Shown in pieces: positions 1-42,361 of a stretch of 43,691 bases of DNA. Origin of the DNA: a virus (Duplodnaviria; Heunggongvirae; Uroviricota; Caudoviricetes); IMG/VR virus record IMGVR_UViG_2645727945_000025, positions 1 to 43,691 of that record; one strand, given 5' to 3'. The position numbers were made by a program, and so were the translations under genes. Below the pieces are notes generated by a model. The model searched no databases. It was not told the DNA's origin and saw only the letters and a list, made by a program, of their open reading frames with translations. The stretch's first letter is position 1. Every line of letters begins with the position of its first letter.

Positions 1-1254
1 ATGCTGGAACAAATGGGCATTGCCGCGAAGCAAGCCTCGTATAAATTAGCGCAACTCTCCAGCCGCGAAAAAAATCGTGTGCTGGAAAAAATCGCCGATG
101 AACTGGAAGCACAAAGCGAAAGCATCCTCAACGCTAACGCACAGGATGTTGCAGACGCGCGTGCTAATGGCCTTAGCGAAGCGATGCTTGACCGTCTGGC
201 ACTGACGCCCGCACGGCTGACAGGCATTGCCGACGATGTGCGCCAGGTGTGCAATCTCGCCGATCCGGTGGGGCAGGTAATCGATGGCGGCGTACTGGAC
301 AGCGGCCTGCGTCTTGAGCGTCGTCGCGTACCGCTGGGAGTGATTGGCGTGATTTATGAAGCGCGCCCGAACGTGACGGTTGATGTTGCTTCCCTGTGCC
401 TGAAAACCGGTAACGCGGTGATCCTGCGCGGCGGCAAAGAAACCTGTCGCACTAACGCTGCAACGGTAGCGGTGATTCAGGACGCCCTGAAATCCTGCGG
501 CTTACCGGCGGGTGCCGTGCAGGCAATTGATAATCCTGACCGTGCGCTGGTCAGTGAAATGCTGCGTATGGATAAATACATCGACATGCTGATCCCGCGC
601 GGTGGGGCTGGTTTGCATAAACTGTGCCGCGAGCAGTCGACAATTCCGGTGATCACAGGCGGTATAGGCGTATGCCATATTTACGTTGATGAAAGCGCAG
701 AGATCGCTGAAGCCCTGAAAGTAATTGTCAACGCGAAAACTCAGCGTCCGAGCACGTGTAATACGGTAGAAACGTTGCTGGTGAATAAAAACATCGCCGA
801 TAGCTTCCTGCCCGCATTAAGCAAGCAAATGGCGGAAAGCAGCGTGACATTACACGCAGATGTAGCTGCGCTGGCGCAGTTGCAGGCAGGCCCCGCGAAG
901 GTGGTGGCTGTTAAAGCCGAAGAGTATGACGATGAGTTTCTGTCATTAGATTTGAACGTTAAAATCGTCAGCGATCTTGACGATGCCATCGCCCATATTC
1001 GTGAACACGGCACACAACACTCCGATGCGATCCTGACCCGCGATATGCGCAACGCCCAGCGTTTTGTTAACGAAGTGGATTCGTCCGCTGTTTACGTTAA
1101 CGCCTCTACGCGTTTTACCGATGGCGGCCAGTTTGGTCTGGGAGCGGAAGTGGCGGTAAGCACACAAAAACTTCACGCGCGTGGCCCGATGGGGCTGGAA
1201 GCACTGACCACTTACAAGTGGATCGGCATTGGTGATTACACCATTCGTGCGTAA
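1..1254 (+). CDS. proA: gamma-glutamyl phosphate reductase (complete, 417 aa)
   Basis: Full-length track ORF; translation recognisable as enterobacterial ProA; host gene upstream of thrW. Confidence 0.95.
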
Positions 1255-1368: not shown

Positions 1369-1444
1369 GCCGATATAGCTCAGTTGGTAGAGCAGCGCAT
1401 TCGTAATGCGAAGGTCGTAGGTTCGACTCCTATTATCGGCACCA
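1369..1444 (+). tRNA. thrW: tRNA-Thr (anticodon CGU)
   Basis: 76-nt sequence GCCGATATAGCTCAGTTGGTAGAGCAGCGCATTCGTAATGCG...GGCACCA folds as a cloverleaf with CGT anticodon and encoded CCA; classic phage integration target. Confidence 0.9.
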
Positions 1445-1462
1445 TTTAAATCAATAAGTTAC
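1399..1462. repeat. attL core: 64-bp direct repeat (tRNA 3' half plus 18 bp), identical to 41138-41201
   Basis: Exact 64-bp identity between the two positions; flanking sequence diverges on both sides. Confidence 0.85.
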
Positions 1463-2619
1463 CTCACATTTAAGTAAATCACGTTCTCCTCTTGTGCCGT
1501 ATTTGTGCCATTGCGACTTATAATTGCATCGATTTTGCTCGCGTGCTCGGTGAGATGCCCGGCTGAAAGGTGGGCGTATCTTTGAACCATTTCGAGAGTT
1601 TCCCATCCTCCCATCTCTTTAAGTGCAAGAAGAGAGACTCCGGACTGAACCAGCCAGCTTGCCCAGGTGTGTCTCAGGTCATGGAATCGGAAGTTGCTAA
1701 TGCCTGCCCGCTTTAACGCTCCCTTCCATGCTTTGTTGCTATCGGTTCTCATCTTCCTTACCGCAGCTGTTTTTGTTCCGTCGCTTCGGTAGGCAGGTTT
1801 GGTGTGGACAAATACCCATCTCTTATGGAGCCCCTGCTGTTTTCTTAATATCTGGCATGCGGTTTCGTTAAGAGGAACTCCGATCGCATTGCCAGCTTTT
1901 GTTTCATCAGGGTGCATCCATGCCATTTTCTTATCCAGATCGACCTGTGACCACTCAAGGTCTGTAACGTTGGAACGGCGAAGGCCTGTCGTGATTGCAA
2001 ACATGACTACAGGGAAGAAATGAGGAGCAATTTCTGCAAACAGGCGCTTCGATTCCTCCTCTGTAAGCCATCTAATGCGTCCATTCTTAACGCGTGGTGT
2101 TGATATTTTGGGCGCCCTGTCAAGCCATCCCCATTCAACAGCCATATTGAGAATAGCGCGAAGTATTGCCAGATGCCGCGTCTTCGTTCCTTTGCTTGCC
2201 AGCTTTGGTTTATACTCCGGCACTGGCTTGCCAAGCCGCAAACACCTGTCCCGGCTCATTTCCCAGTTCAGGCGATGGCGGCGGTTTTCCATCCCGTCTA
2301 CCGCCTCCATTATTTTTTCTGTTGTTATGTCTGAGAGAATGGTTTCTCTGAAGTGCAACATCCAGAACGATATAATGCTCTTGTCATCATCAATGGACTT
2401 CTTATCCGATTTCTCACGAAGCCACCGTATGCAGGCTTCCTTGAATAGCTTTTTCGGTGATTCCCCGAGATTTTTTACTCTCCACGCTTCTGCTTTCAGA
2501 CGATCGTGAAGTTCTTGCGCTTGCCTTTTGTCCGATGTTTCAAGAGAGCGTCTAACTCTTGATCCATCTGGCGCGACGAAATCACAGTGCCACGTGCCAC
2601 CGCGTAGTTTGATTGACAT
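1459..2619 (-). CDS. int: Tyrosine integrase (P22/lambda family), 386 aa
   Basis: C-terminal catalytic motifs (HDLRHT...W, ...MVQRYAHL); stop codon lies inside the att core next to the tRNA. Confidence 0.95.
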   Translation of the reverse strand: MSIKLRGGTWHCDFVAPDGSRVRRSLETSDKRQAQELHDRLKAEAWRVKNLGESPKKLFKEACIRWLREKSDKKSIDDDKSIISFWMLHFRETILSDITTEKIMEAVDGMENRRHRLNWEMSRDRCLRLGKPVPEYKPKLASKGTKTRHLAILRAILNMAVEWGWLDRAPKISTPRVKNGRIRWLTEEESKRLFAEIAPHFFPVVMFAITTGLRRSNVTDLEWSQVDLDKKMAWMHPDETKAGNAIGVPLNETACQILRKQQGLHKRWVFVHTKPAYRSDGTKTAAVRKMRTDSNKAWKGALKRAGISNFRFHDLRHTWASWLVQSGVSLLALKEMGGWETLEMVQRYAHLSAGHLTEHASKIDAIISRNGTNTAQEENVIYLNVR

Positions 2620-37758: not shown

Positions 37759-38649
37759 ATGTCAAGCTTAGCAAAGTCAACTGTAAATTGCACTAATAGC
37801 ATCATCATTTCTGACGTCAAGATTCATATGGATTCAGAGGGTCGTTACTCGCTTAATGACCTTCATGTAGCGTCTGGAAAGGAGGAAAAACATCAGCCAG
37901 CTTTCTTCATGCGTAGAAATGAAACTATTGAATTGATTAATGAAATTTTTAATTCTGCGGATATGCAGAATAAGAATCCCGTCCTTTCTAAGAAAGGTAG
38001 ATATGGTGGAACCTACGTGTGCAAGGAGCTTGTTTACTCCTACGCCATGTGGATTAGCGCAGCCTTTGCGCTGAAGGTTATCCGTGCATATGACGCAATG
38101 GTTACTACCACACAAGAGAGGAAGGCTATTGGCGGTAAAACTTCAGTAGCTGAACGCACACCGCTACGCGATGCAGTAAACATGTTGGTAGGAAAGAAAG
38201 GACTTCGCTATGACGATGCATACAATATGGTTCATCAGCGTTTTGGTATTGACAGCATTGATGAACTTTCAATTGAACAAATCCCGCTGGCCGTAGAGTA
38301 CATCCACAGGGTAGTGCTTGAAGGTGAATTCATCGGCAAACAAGAGAAGAAAACCAACGAGCTTTCTGCAAAAGAAGCAAACAGCCTTGTATGGCTATGG
38401 GATTATGCCAACCGCTCACAGGCATTATTCCGCGAACTGTATCCGGCGCTGAAACAAATTCAATCGAACTATTCCGGCAGATGTCATGACTGCGGTTATG
38501 AGTTCTCCCGTATTATCGATATAGCGAGAGACGTTTTAATCAATCACTCACGAGATGTTGATATCAATGAGCCAGACGGACCAACGAATCATTCCGCATG
38601 GATGAGACTTAAGAATAAAGAATTACCTCCTTCAGTACATAACTACTGA
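37759..38649 (+). CDS. ant: Antirepressor Ant (296 aa)
   Basis: Size and position after arc; KilA-N-like N-terminus. Confidence 0.85.
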
Positions 38650-38667
38650 CAGATAACCAACGCAACG

Positions 38668-38692
38668 ACCCAGCTTCGGCTGGGTTTTTTTA
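38668..38692 (+). terminator. Intrinsic terminator after ant
   Basis: ACCCAGC-TTCG-GCTGGGT hairpin followed by TTTTTTTAT. Confidence 0.6.
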
Positions 38693-38749
38693 TGCCCAAA
38701 ATTCACCGTAGCCATGCTGCGGCGATTCCTTGTATCTGGAGCAAATTAA

Positions 38750-40885
38750 ATGACAGACATTACAGCCAATGTGATCGTATCGATGCCTTCGCAACTCTTC
38801 ACTATGGCTCGTTCTTTTAAAGCCGTAGCCAATGGAAAAATTTATATCGGTAAAATTGACACTGACCCGGTAAATCCTGAAAACCAGATTCAGGTTTATG
38901 TGGAGAACGAAGACGGCTCTCACGTTCCTGTATCGCAGCCAATCATCATTAACGCTGCCGGATATCCTGTATATAACGGACAGATTGCCAAATTCGTAAC
39001 TGTGCAAGGCCATTCTATGGCTGTTTATGATGCATATGGGGCGCAGCAGTTCTATTTTCCTAATGTGCTGAAGTATGACCCTGATCAACTCAGGTCTGAA
39101 TTATCAGCTCAGGGTGGAGATAAGATTGTTGGTAGTTCGTATGGCGGAACCGTCTATACAGACTACAGTCCATCAGAATTCATTAAGTTTGCAGAATTCA
39201 CCGTCCCAACAAGTCTTTCAAACAATAGACAAGCCGTTAAATATATAGACGGATTTTGGTATGTATGGAATGGAACATTTCCATACAATACTGGAACGTC
39301 AAATCCTGGTAATAATGACACATGGAAATGCGTTGGACTTCTAAATGGTTTTTCGGTTAATGACGCTCAGAACTTTGGCTTCACAGGGGGTATGGACGAT
39401 GCACTTCCAGCGCTAAATGCGATGATTAGAAGCCCATTTTTTGAAATGTTTTTCCCTATTGGAAGTGAAATTAATATTTCGTCTGACTGGAATCTCCGTT
39501 CAAATTTATATATAAACTTTCACGGTTCAACAATCAACTGGATGGGTGCTGCTTTCTCAAGTTCTGATGTTGTGAATGGTAGCGAGATGGCTATTTTAAA
39601 TACGCCAAATTTTTCAGGTGGAACTACAGGGGCACTCGTAAACCTTCATCTGTCAAACTTAAATATTAAAGCAAATGATTACGCAATAGGCATAAGTGCA
39701 AGGAATATTACAAATTTCTCTATAGAGAATGTTTATGTAGAGAAAGCGCAACGTCAAGGAATTAATGTATCTAATTGCCAGAATGGATGTATTAATCAAA
39801 TAACTCTGAAAGATTGCTCTCCTTTATCTGATAAAGGATTTACTAGTTCACAGCTAGAGAGTTGGGGCGATGGATTGATTGTATGGTATGGAAGCACTAA
39901 CGTATCCATTGATAACATTAGAGTTGAATCAGGAAATAATTCACGAGGAGGTCGCTGCGGTATCTGTATCGATGGTTATGCTCCATCCGGAAAGCCAGAT
40001 TCACGCAATATTTCTGTAAATAACGCTTATGTTTACGGTTATGACAGGCCTATACATACCGAACTATGCGGTATTGTTACCGTAACTAACAGTGTTTTCG
40101 AATACAACTCAGGCTCTGACACGCATCACTTTTTGCAATGTGGTGTCGTCGTGTGGAATGTCCTTGAAACCACTACTTTTATCAACTGCACGTTTCGCAC
40201 AGATATGCGGTTTATGAAAAACTCAGGCGCTAAGGCGAAATTCATAAAATGTAATGTGTACAAAACATCAAGCACTGAGCCTATGTTTATAACAGGTACA
40301 GAGCAAACAGGTATAGTTAATTTTGATGACTGCTTACTTTCTCATGCCGGTGGTGAATGGGGGGCTTGGAACTGTTCATTAAGTTTTAATGGTTGCACGA
40401 TATCATCTGATTCTGCTGGATCTGTTATTAATTTTGGTAGCGAATCCATACCAAAAAATATCACTATTGTTAATTCACATCTGTTAAACACATCAATATC
40501 AGCACTGTTCGCACCTGGATTTACTGAAATTCATCTTTCTAATTCAACAATAAATGGAGATGTTAATTGCGGACCTTCTGCCAGACTTCGTGTAAATTCA
40601 TGCGATATATATGGAGTTGTTACATGCAATAGTGTAATGAGATACAACGGACAGAAACCAAATAAATTAATTTATTTGCAAAATGCAGACCAGCAATACA
40701 ATGGCATGTGGCTAGGAACGCGCCCACCACTAGGTGCTAGACCAGATGGATCTGGAGATTGGTTGAGGGGTGATATAGTTTTTAATCTCGACGCCATAGA
40801 GTCAACACCATTCCAATGGTATTGCGTAACCCCAGGATCGCCTGGAAGATGGGCTGTATCTGGAACTCTTGGCGCAGCTTCTTAA
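38750..40885 (+). CDS. Tailspike (P22 gp9-family head-binding N-terminus plus divergent receptor-binding domain), 711 aa
   Basis: N-terminal ~115 aa recalled as the conserved P22/HK620/Sf6 head-binding domain; remainder AT-rich with repetitive beta-strand-like segments. Confidence 0.9.
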
Positions 40886-41137
40886 ATTTAAATGAATAAC
40901 TATATTAGTTAATGGTCTTATCTCTGTCACAACCTCATGACACACAAAGCTTTGCACTGGATTGCAAGGCTTTGTGCTCTTCTATGCTGGGTGGCTACAT
41001 GTTTGAAGATCGTTGTGCCGTATTTGTGACATACACATGACAACATCATGCATCAACTTTCTGTTTGTGCCATCAACTATTGCTTGGTGAATGCGGTTAA
41101 TGCTTGCTAAAACAGATAGTTATGATTGGTGCTACAG

Positions 41138-41201
41138 ATTCGTAATGCGAAGGTCGTAGGTTCGACTCCTATTATCGGCACCATTTAAATCAATAAGTTA
41201 C
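41138..41201. repeat. attR of prophage 1 and attL of prophage 2: second 64-bp core copy with tRNA 3' fragment
   Basis: Identical to 1399-1462; the 5' tRNA half is not reconstituted here (no GCCGAT acceptor strand upstream). Confidence 0.85.
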
Positions 41202-42361
41202 ACATCATTAGTACCTTCCTTATTTTTTGACTGGGACAAATTTGGGACCGATGGGTTCAGAATCGAGTCTATTTGCCGTGCGTGTTCGGTAAGGTGATTA
41301 GGCGCGAGGTGAGCATATCGACGAACCATTTCGATAGACTCCCAGCCACCCATTTCCTGTAACACTGACAACGGGACTCCGGCTTGAACCAGCCAACTTG
41401 CCCAGGTGTGTCTCAAGTCGTGAAATCTGAAATCATCAATACCAGCTCGTCTCAGCGCCGCTTTCCAGGCTGTGTTTGCGTCATACCGCATCTTCCTTAC
41501 TGTTGGCGCTTTCGTTCCGTCTGGTTTGGTACAGCTTTCCTTGTACACAAATACCCAACGGTGATGATTCCCGATTTGTTTTTTCAAAACGCGACATGCA
41601 GTATCATTCAGCGCAACGCCGATTGCGCGGTTTGATTTACTCTCTTCCGGGTTTATCCATGCCACCCGGCGCTGCATATCTATTTGTTGCCATTCAAGGT
41701 TGATGATGTTCGAGCGTCTTAAACCTGTTGCCAGTGCAAATTCAACAACAGACTTTAATGGCTCCGGACATTCATCAATCAGCCTTTGTGCTTCATGGGG
41801 CTCCAGCCAGCGGATCCGTTTATTCTTTGGTTGAGGCACTTTAATAATTGGTGCCTTATCCAGCATTTTCCATTCACGCTCTGCGGCTCTTAGTAGGGCC
41901 TTTATAAATGAAAGATGCGTAGCCTTCGTTGCAACGGACGCTGGTTTTGGCGTGTATTCTGGAACAGGTTTCCCTTTTTTTCTGCATGCTTCTGCCCTGA
42001 GTTTCCAGTTTTCCTCATGACGCCGGTTCGTCATTTTCTGCATTGCTGAATAAATTTTTGATTCAGTAATGTCTCTTAGTTGCATTCCTGCGAAATGTTG
42101 AAGCCAGAATCCGATCCGGCTTTTGTCATCGTCCAGTGATTTTTTATGTGCTTTCTCTTCAAGCCACCTGACACACGCTTCCTCGAACGTTATATCAGGT
42201 ATTTCACCAAGTTTGCTGACCCGCCATGCTTCAGCCTTTAGCTTGTCATGGAGTTCTGTCGCCTGCCTTTTGTCCTTTGTTCCAAGAGACTGTTTAAATC
42301 TTTTACCGTTCGGCAATGTGAAACTGGCGTACCATATTTCACCTCTGCGGAAGAGTGACAT
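41198..42361 (-). CDS. int: Tyrosine integrase of prophage 2 (P22 Int-like, 387 aa)
   Basis: Recalled close similarity to P22 Int ([33 protein letters not shown]...); stop inside the att core. Confidence 0.95.

Follow-up and report, generated by a model that had tools for sequence, protein, structure and literature searches.

Tailspikes built on the P22 head-binding domain are textbook examples of mosaic proteins, with phages P22, Sf6, HK620 and CUS-3 as the standard cases. P22 gp9 is an endorhamnosidase and HK620 gp9 an endo-N-acetylglucosaminidase, and the K1-specific, P22-like phage CUS-3 provides the textbook instance of module replacement on a P22 anchor. The receptor domains of tailspikes set host range, and they serve as serogroup-specific reagents, as components of engineered reporter phages and as O-antigen-degrading tools. 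Work published in 2023 (Virol J, PMC10408124) reports that the tailspike anchor is conserved within a genus and that receptor domains pass between Lederberg-, Kutter-, Kaguna- and other viruses in step with the O-serogroups of their hosts. The same principle of exchange applies to the tailspike analyzed in this work.

Here we examine a tailspike gene located in a 43,691-nt stretch of Escherichia coli chromosomal DNA (hereafter, the window). A reading of the window made from its sequence alone had proposed that the gene joins a conserved P22-family head-binding N-terminus to an AT-rich, divergent receptor-binding domain of foreign origin. We combine domain, fold and nucleotide-level comparisons to delimit the exchanged cassette, to place its receptor domain in a family and to put forward a candidate substrate and a predicted active site.

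Results

Prophage setting of the tailspike gene

The tailspike belongs to what appears to be a complete P22-like prophage of the Lederbergvirus type, inserted at the thrW locus of E. coli (Table 1). A 64-bp repeat marks attL and attR and so delimits a prophage of 39.8 kb, in which the tailspike gene, ending 253 nt upstream of attR, comes last. The early-to-late region (nt 1-25000) shows patchy 96-97% identity to HK620-, IME10- and N7-like phages, and also to Sf6-like phages. Upstream of the tailspike we find ORFs for the P22-type portal, scaffold, coat, gp10, gp26, gp20 and gp16 proteins and, directly adjacent to it, Arc/Mnt-type and KilA-N/P22_AR_C antirepressor genes. The tailspike hence occupies the position characteristic of the P22 family, at the end of the late region, after immI/ant and adjoining the attachment site. 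A second integrase gene (41198-42361) was considered as part of the same prophage and is ruled out by the 64-bp att repeat, which places it at the start of another lambdoid element in tandem, one commonly found at thrW. This flanking second prophage occurs in many serotypes.

The protein product is identical to the database entry derived from contig JHRO01000030.1 of E. coli assembly GCA_001265515.1. The interval highlighted by the sequence-only reading (39095-40885) corresponds to the 3′ five-sixths of the ORF, starting at codon 116 and ending with the stop codon. The intrinsic terminator that precedes the gene occupies the position of tANT as annotated in HK620.

Table 1. Features of the tailspike locus and its prophage, in window coordinates (aa, residues of the tailspike protein)
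Feature	Position	Strand	Remarks
Host gene	1-1254		
tRNA-Thr(CGT)	1369-1444		
attL	1399-1462		Covers 3′ part of tRNA-Thr(CGT)
Integrase gene	1459-2619	-	Complete set of P22-type early and late genes follows
Antirepressor gene	37759-38649		Upstream of intrinsic terminator
Intrinsic terminator	38667-38686	+	8-bp GC-rich stem, then TTTTTTT; between antirepressor and tailspike genes
Shine-Dalgarno GGAG	38739-38742	+	7 nt before tailspike ATG; read directly from sequence
Tailspike gene	38750-40885	+	Single ORF, 711 codons plus stop; 711 aa; WP_052923891.1
Head-binding (virion-attachment) domain, aa 1-113	38750-39088	+	PF09008, PDB matches, nucleotide identity to phages
Left recombination junction	39087-39092	+	Gene nt 338-343, codons D113-Q114 of KYDPDQ; drop in identity to HK620/CUS-3
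Hinge/linker, aa 114-140	39089-39169	+	AlphaFold pLDDT <50 for aa 116-135
Small beta domain, aa 141-200	39170-39349	+	Ends WKCVG; phrog_22294; related to Tail_spike_N type motif
Right-handed parallel beta-helix, aa 201-655	39350-40714	+	Starts with VNDAQNFGF...ALPALNAMI cap helix; putative glycan-binding/cleaving body
E370...D374 (LESWGDG)	39857-39871	+	Invariant acidic pair, candidate catalytic; 16 sequences down to 21% identity (A3), also A1/A2
R402 of RGGRCG	39953-39955	+	Invariant
G430-Y-D-R-P-I-H-T-E438	40037-40063	+	Most conserved family motif (GYDRxxHxE); candidate active-site rung
C-terminal module, aa 656-711	40715-40882	+	One copy of a ~40-aa unit, widespread, unannotated
Terminator-like 14-bp hairpin	40943-40976	+	3′ of tailspike gene; ET826 homology stops just past it
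attR	41138-41201	+	Exact 64-bp copy of attL

Domain architecture and fold

The N-terminal anchor of the protein is readily identified. The Pfam Head_binding profile (PF09008) aligns with aa 1-113 over all of its positions (1-113 of 113), with an E-value of 7.2e-67 and 223 bits against a cutoff of 24. In a phmmer search of the PDB, Sf6 gp14 matches aa 1-121 (E 1e-67, with ~93% identity over aa 1-113) and the N-domain of P22 gp9 matches aa 1-118 (E 7e-53). These results agree with the sequence-only reading, which had assigned the first ~115 residues to the P22-family head-binding domain. PF09008 is the sole Pfam match to the window protein at E-values up to 1, with no beta-helix profile among the matches, and the full protein has no NCBIfam match.

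Past the anchor, the proposed dissimilarity to P22 gp9 also holds: neither phmmer against the PDB nor profile search detects similarity between aa 116-711 and either P22 gp9 or a tailspike catalytic domain of solved structure. A match of the receptor part to an endoglucanase in the phmmer search (E 0.054) was rejected as chance. Profile search of the PDB returned mostly the anchor domains of homologues and matched the beta-helix part only weakly, to CBA120 TSP4 (profile positions 500-601, E 2e-4). In PHROGs, the protein is assigned to phrog_7992, a "tail spike protein" family (E 3e-26), and homologues at 27-52% identity match PF13229 or PF12708, of the pectate-lyase-like beta-helix superfamily, an affiliation that is supported by fold search.

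In the AlphaFold model, computed for the monomer and built on 27 homologues (pLDDT 88.7, pTM 0.87), a disordered hinge and a small beta domain follow the anchor; the chain then forms a right-handed beta-helix, capped by a helix, and closes with a short beta module at the C-terminus. The beta-helix that the sequence-only reading had proposed to look for by structure prediction is therefore present and, as in the P22 family, the receptor domain is built on a right-handed parallel beta-helix. The solved structures nearest in fold share at most 15% identity with it, and its top structural neighbours include non-enzymatic adhesins as well as polysaccharide lyases and an epimerase, so that the chemistry cannot be read from the fold alone.

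The flanking segments of the receptor domain are found in other contexts. The hinge shows 60-73% nucleotide identity to a subset of other P22-like tailspikes and is in part homologous to those of S1 and fECg99.1. The small beta domain takes the same position in tailspikes with different beta-helices: P0036, P0039, P0040 and P0044, for example, carry the head-binding domain at their aa 1-113 and share 40-51% identity with the window protein, confined to this domain, and P0036 also matches PF18668 at aa 143-188. The C-terminal module has no Pfam family; matches to the module alone occur in Rhizobium and Vibrio phage proteins, and small proteins carry it in two to four tandem copies.

Receptor-domain family and candidate substrate

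The receptor domain belongs to a small family. A search of 5.8 billion entries yielded 27 matching clusters, 26 clusters aligning with no less than 95% of the query at 45-99% identity, and in the library clustered at 50% identity nine representatives match at E 1e-30 or better. Relatives are encoded in two of ~185,000 species-representative genomes and on four IMG/VR contigs; they comprise Salmonella phage Mutine itself, one fragment, and homologues with 27% identity in Proteus penneri and Arsenophonus. Among deposited phage genomes, the nearest match is a spike of Mutine, and full-length homology over ~570 residues, together with the invariant motifs, places the domain in the Mutine-TSP-type receptor family (signature GYDRPxHTE). 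The 90%-identity cluster that holds the window's protein has 73 members, the named ones all from E. coli, and a second cluster, 90% identical to the first, has 60 members, the named ones all from Salmonella enterica. Among named genomes, the closest P22-type versions are those of E. coli, Salmonella and Citrobacter (99%, 90% and 57%), followed by more distant P22-anchored versions in Arsenophonus and Morganella (44-45%).

The sequence-only reading had left the receptor specificity unassigned, and the searchable literature offers neither an experimental nor a predicted assignment for this domain family. Our analysis narrows it to a candidate, the O55-type O-antigen. E. coli ET826, isolated from frog faeces in China, is the sole carrier of the receptor domain among 5426 complete E. 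coli genomes. Annotation of its O-antigen locus lists wzy and wzx of the O55 family together with genes of the colitose pathway, and its wzy-wzx segment is 100% identical to that of the O55:H7 strains CB9615 and RM12579. This segment is present in 17 of the 5426 genomes, so a carrier drawn at random would be O55 with a probability of ~0.3%. The link draws on one serotyped lysogen, the only typable carrier (1/1 O55), and the other 16 complete O55 genomes are devoid of the tailspike gene.

The distribution of the O55 polymerase points in the same direction. Homologues of this protein are confined to three taxa, namely E. coli, Citrobacter freundii (89%) and Salmonella enterica (54%), in each case within a syntenic cluster. 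The O-antigens of E. coli O55 and of Salmonella O50 are reportedly identical, and the support for this equivalence in our data is the syntenic Salmonella cluster with its 54%-identical wzy. At the strain level, no overlap was seen in Citrobacter between the samples listed with an O55-type wzy (three) and those listed with related tailspikes (eight); the Citrobacter tailspikes are accompanied by gtrA/gtrB/GT genes, and their specificity may differ. Weighing these observations, we consider the case for O55 specificity of the domain to be evenly poised.

The leading alternative is that the tailspike targets a different surface polysaccharide, be it another O-type, an O-antigen capsule, a K-antigen or an exopolysaccharide, and that the O55 type of ET826 is coincidental. 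The rarity of O55 among complete genomes argues against such a coincidence. So does the presence of the domain in Salmonella enterica, most serovars of which have no capsule, and the genera with an O55-type wzy are also those with the closest tailspikes. The structural neighbours do not inform on the substrate, because they are at most 15% identical to the domain. We regard a different polysaccharide as unlikely, while granting it a larger share of the probability than any other competing account. No O55- or O50-specific tailspike or depolymerase was found in the searchable literature, and O55 has no occurrences in the main text of PMC10408124.

Predicted active site

Conservation within the family singles out a set of residues that are invariant down to 21% identity: Q334, G337, G346, C356, E370, D374, G375, G381, R402, G430, Y431, D432, R433, H436, E438 and W469. 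The polar residues in this set (Q334, E370, D374, R402, Y431, D432, R433, H436 and E438) lie at four positions along the beta-helix, at intervals of 28-36 residues, and GYDRxxHxE was picked by program as the family-defining pattern. Such regularly spaced, invariant polar residues form the pattern expected of a catalytic groove, which suggests that they outline the active site, and two of E370, D374, D432 and E438 would be the catalytic carboxylates. In the P22, Sf6 and HK620 tailspikes, the catalytic carboxylates are ~33 residues apart. We rate it as highly probable that the receptor domain is an O-antigen depolymerase. To our knowledge, the O55 repeat unit, for which PMC7685785 cites Lindberg 1981, contains no uronic acid; were O55 the substrate, the reaction would then have to be hydrolytic, not lytic.

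A beta-helix that merely binds its glycan, as in an adhesin-type receptor-binding protein, would fit with the presence of the non-enzymatic beta-helices PfbA, Vag8 and pertactin among the structural matches and with the absence of sequence matches to any characterised glycosidase family. A binding face should nonetheless vary with the glycan, unlike the E, D, R, Y, D, R, H and E residues that are kept down to 21% identity here, and all characterised P22-family tailspikes that we know of (P22, Sf6, HK620 and CUS-3) are enzymes. We thus deem a non-catalytic function very improbable and retain the depolymerase as the preferred reading.

Junction, composition and mobility of the cassette

At the nucleotide level, the gene divides sharply into two parts. 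Megablast of the whole gene aligns nt 1 to ~338-351 at 81-97% identity with 30 phage records, HK620, Sf6, CUS-3, N7 and epsilon34 among them, and with 1109 E. coli records, and a match to the head part is present in 1104 of the 5426 complete E. coli genomes. Past nt ~329-351, megablast finds no match to the gene in any phage record, and the remaining 1.8 kb matches exactly one of the 5426 complete genomes, that of ET826. Base-level alignment locates the transition at nt 338-343, inside TATGACCCTGATCA, where identity to HK620 and CUS-3 drops from 93-96% to 40-60%.

Base composition changes along the gene as well. GC content is 47.2% for the window, 43.8% for the head part and 39.2% for codons 116-711, and GC content at third codon positions (GC3) falls from 43.5% in the head part to 29.3% in codons 116-711. 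The step in total GC is modest (4.6 points) because GC content is already below the window mean in the head part and in the adjacent immI region (only ~40% in the latter); the step at third codon positions is large (14 points). In a scan with 4191 sliding windows of 1791 bp (mean 47.1%, sd 3.2%), the five lowest in GC (38.7%) all start inside the segment of codons 116-711, and the interval 39095-40885 ranks 55th lowest. The AT-richness that the sequence-only reading placed from about codon 115 onward, and for which it proposed a sliding-window check, is thus confirmed, with a step in total GC that is only moderate.

The receptor domain is found on four kinds of anchor, namely P22-like, T7-like, siphovirus and that of the Kuttervirus Mutine, with homologues at 45-79% identity. 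Carriers with the P22 head-binding anchor come from E. coli, Salmonella, Citrobacter, Arsenophonus and Morganella. In the T7-like carrier the domain sits on a T7 tail-fibre N-terminus, and in the siphovirus carrier, whose genome encodes tail-assembly chaperones and a family-A DNA polymerase, on a Tail_spike_N anchor. The domain has a low GC3 in every carrier examined, and its GC content is below that of the surrounding phage in the siphovirus and T7-like carriers too, with the window's copy being the most extreme.

Comparison with ET826 provides a direct view of this mobility. The ET826 copy resides in another P22-like prophage, inserted at argW beside IntS rather than at thrW, and its upstream genes differ. 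The two genes show 16 differences over the 338 nt of the head part (95.3% identity) and 12 over the remaining 1798 nt (99.3%; Fisher p 5e-7), and this discordance implies that the receptor cassette moves on its own. Downstream of the stop codon, homology extends for ~95 nt (98% and 88% identity over the first 100 nt, then ~20%), and the hairpin 3′ of the gene marks the right end of the shared cassette (~40980), since homology to ET826 ends just after it. The alignments indicate that the cassette (~39088-40980) was placed on two different head-binding alleles more recently than those alleles diverged. The horizontal replacement of the receptor domain put forward in the sequence-only reading is therefore backed by the four kinds of anchor and by the ET826 comparison, and the gene is almost certainly a mosaic.

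That the low GC content simply reflects the amino-acid composition of an Asn-, Ser-, Ile- and Thr-rich beta-helix in a gene that is an old resident of the lineage, as might be argued from the abundance of Asn, Ser and Gly in the receptor domain (~10% each) and from the low GC content of the immI region, is extremely improbable and already contradicted by the evidence: GC3 is largely independent of the protein and falls nonetheless, nucleotide homology to all other P22-like phages stops abruptly at nt 338-343, the domain sits on unrelated anchors, and the head and receptor parts diverge discordantly between two prophages.

Discussion

The explanation that we favour, and that we consider probable when taken as a whole, is that of a P22-like prophage tailspike bearing a foreign cassette that acts as an O-antigen endoglycosidase, probably on O55. 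The first 113 residues, common to the whole phage group, would dock a putative trimer onto the tail machine. A foreign, low-GC cassette (~39088 to ~40980) has been recombined in at the conserved KYDPDQ codons, contributing the hinge, the small beta domain, the ~455-residue right-handed beta-helix and the 55-residue C-terminal module. The most likely role of the beta-helix is to bind the O-antigen of the host and to cleave it as an endoglycosidase, which would bring the virion to the outer membrane, and the most likely substrate is a colitose-containing O-antigen of the O55 type.

On a bolder reading, which we rate as less likely than not, the domain, which has no Pfam, NCBIfam or PDB relative, would found a new glycosidase family and represent the first enzyme known to cut the colitose-bearing O55/O50 O-antigen or, more radically, its AlgE-like Y-D...H...E arrangement would carry out non-hydrolytic chemistry or act on a substrate other than O-antigen. 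O55 is of clinical importance: classical EPEC strains belong to it, as does the O55:H7 ancestor of O157:H7. An O55/O50 enzyme, if validated, would provide a useful reagent and represent a structurally uncharacterised enzyme family.

Comparison with described systems helps delimit what is specific to this tailspike. The Klebsiella K1 depolymerases 9k4a and 7w1c and the epimerase AlgE4 (2pyg), recovered as fold-search matches, share 12-15% identity with it. These enzymes act on uronic-acid polymers by proton abstraction, in contrast to the proposed O55 substrate, which is not known to contain uronic acid, and a sequence-level match between the AlgE4-like YG(F/I)DPH(D/E) motif and that of the tailspike needs two insertions. 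The Mutine spike (CPT_Mutine_047, AUG88179.1, 1071 aa) is much closer: over its last 570 residues it has 51% identity to aa 142-711 of the window protein, and it shares the GYDRPxHTE and RGGRCG motifs and the C-terminal module. It differs in its anchor, since this Salmonella Kuttervirus protein carries a ~500-residue myovirus TSP-complex anchor instead of the head-binding domain. The literature found on Mutine assigns no receptor to CPT_Mutine_047 and attributes the assigned host of the phage to TSP3. As the sequence of the Mutine spike is half diverged, its specificity may differ from that of the tailspike analyzed here.

Among P22-like phages, CUS-3 has the same head-binding domain (94% nucleotide identity over nt 1-338) and a near-identical upstream ant region, but its swapped module is a capsule-targeting endosialidase, unrelated in sequence and fold to the beta-helix described here. 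P22 gp9, Sf6 gp14 and HK620 gp9 resemble the window's tailspike in their head-binding domain, in the KYDPDQ junction, in gene order (last in the late operon, behind ant/immI and beside att) and in the body plan of their beta-helix. The gene is, in this respect, a P22-family tailspike of the ordinary kind, with a receptor domain from a small uncharacterised family. It leaves the current understanding of these proteins unchanged and adds to it a clean and quantifiable case of the well-known cassette exchange at KYDPDQ, with a receptor domain that is shared across four virion architectures.

Modular composition of the tailspike

The receptor part of the tailspike has 17 cysteines (2.9%), one of which, C356, is invariant in the receptor-domain family. 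Beyond the head-binding domain lies a small beta domain that shares 40-51% identity with the segment at the same position in other P22-like tailspikes (P0036, P0039, P0040 and P0044), whose beta-helices are unrelated. By sequence comparison, this domain forms a second mosaic layer inside the tailspike cassette; as it is common to tailspikes with unrelated beta-helices, the cassette is modular in its own right.

The protein ends in a unit of about 40 residues with the pattern GxWxxGDxxxNxxPxxGxxxGWxCxxxGxPGxW, which was examined in three further proteins (P0064, P0074 and P0081) beside the C-terminal module of the window. Fibre proteins of Rhizobium and Vibrio phages, otherwise unrelated, carry the unit by itself at their C-terminal end, and small proteins without a Pfam family contain two to four tandem copies of it.

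Features of the tailspike and of the thrW site, in window coordinates
Feature	Position	Residues	Remarks
Tandem elements at thrW	1369-1462, 41138-42361, on to 43691		two integrative elements
P22-like prophage ends	1399-1462 and 41138-41201		exact 64-bp repeat
Tailspike receptor part	39095-40882
Small beta domain	39170-39349	141-200
C-terminal module	40715-40882	656-711	final ~45 residues are a single copy of the ~40-aa unit
Tailspike-attR interval	40886-41137
Second integrase	41198-42361		minus strand; directly after P22-like prophage

Tandem integration at thrW

The thrW site is occupied by two integrative elements in tandem. In the second, the integrase is followed by an HTH_17 excisionase-like gene and early genes of the Ead/Ea22 type, and in many E. 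coli genomes this element directly adjoins the tRNA-Thr gene.

O55 hosts and base composition

Among complete E. coli genomes, this tailspike occurs only in that of ET826 (L001, L003; CP100901), isolated from frog faeces. Its accession number is close to that of Citrobacter CP101040.1 (L020), which has an O55-type O-antigen cluster (89% identical), and the two strains may come from one sampling project; if so, hosts of the same O-antigen possibly share a niche. In the O55 gene cluster of ET826 (L003, 1-10330), the wzy, wzx and glycosyltransferase genes have a GC content of 29-34%, which resembles the 29% GC3 of the receptor domain in the tailspike. The genes that make the receptor and the module that recognises it are both low-GC islands in genomes of about 47-51% GC.

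O-antigen modification genes

Between the tailspike and attR there are no gtrABC, oac or acyltransferase genes for O-antigen conversion, and modification of its own receptor by the lysogen through such a cassette is therefore not expected. In contrast, HK620, E. coli S1 and related Citrobacter prophages (L023-L025, L027-L031) carry conversion genes downstream of the tailspike. In Citrobacter freundii, a block comprising the receptor domain and gtrA, gtrB and GT_STM0557-like genes stands behind two different anchors (L023-L025 versus L027-L031), namely the P22 head-binding domain and Tail_spike_N; the Tail_spike_N anchor is preceded by two tail proteins, an NlpC/P60 protein and one of 825 aa. 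The recurrence of this block behind both anchors suggests that spike domain and O-antigen-modification genes travel as one in Citrobacter.
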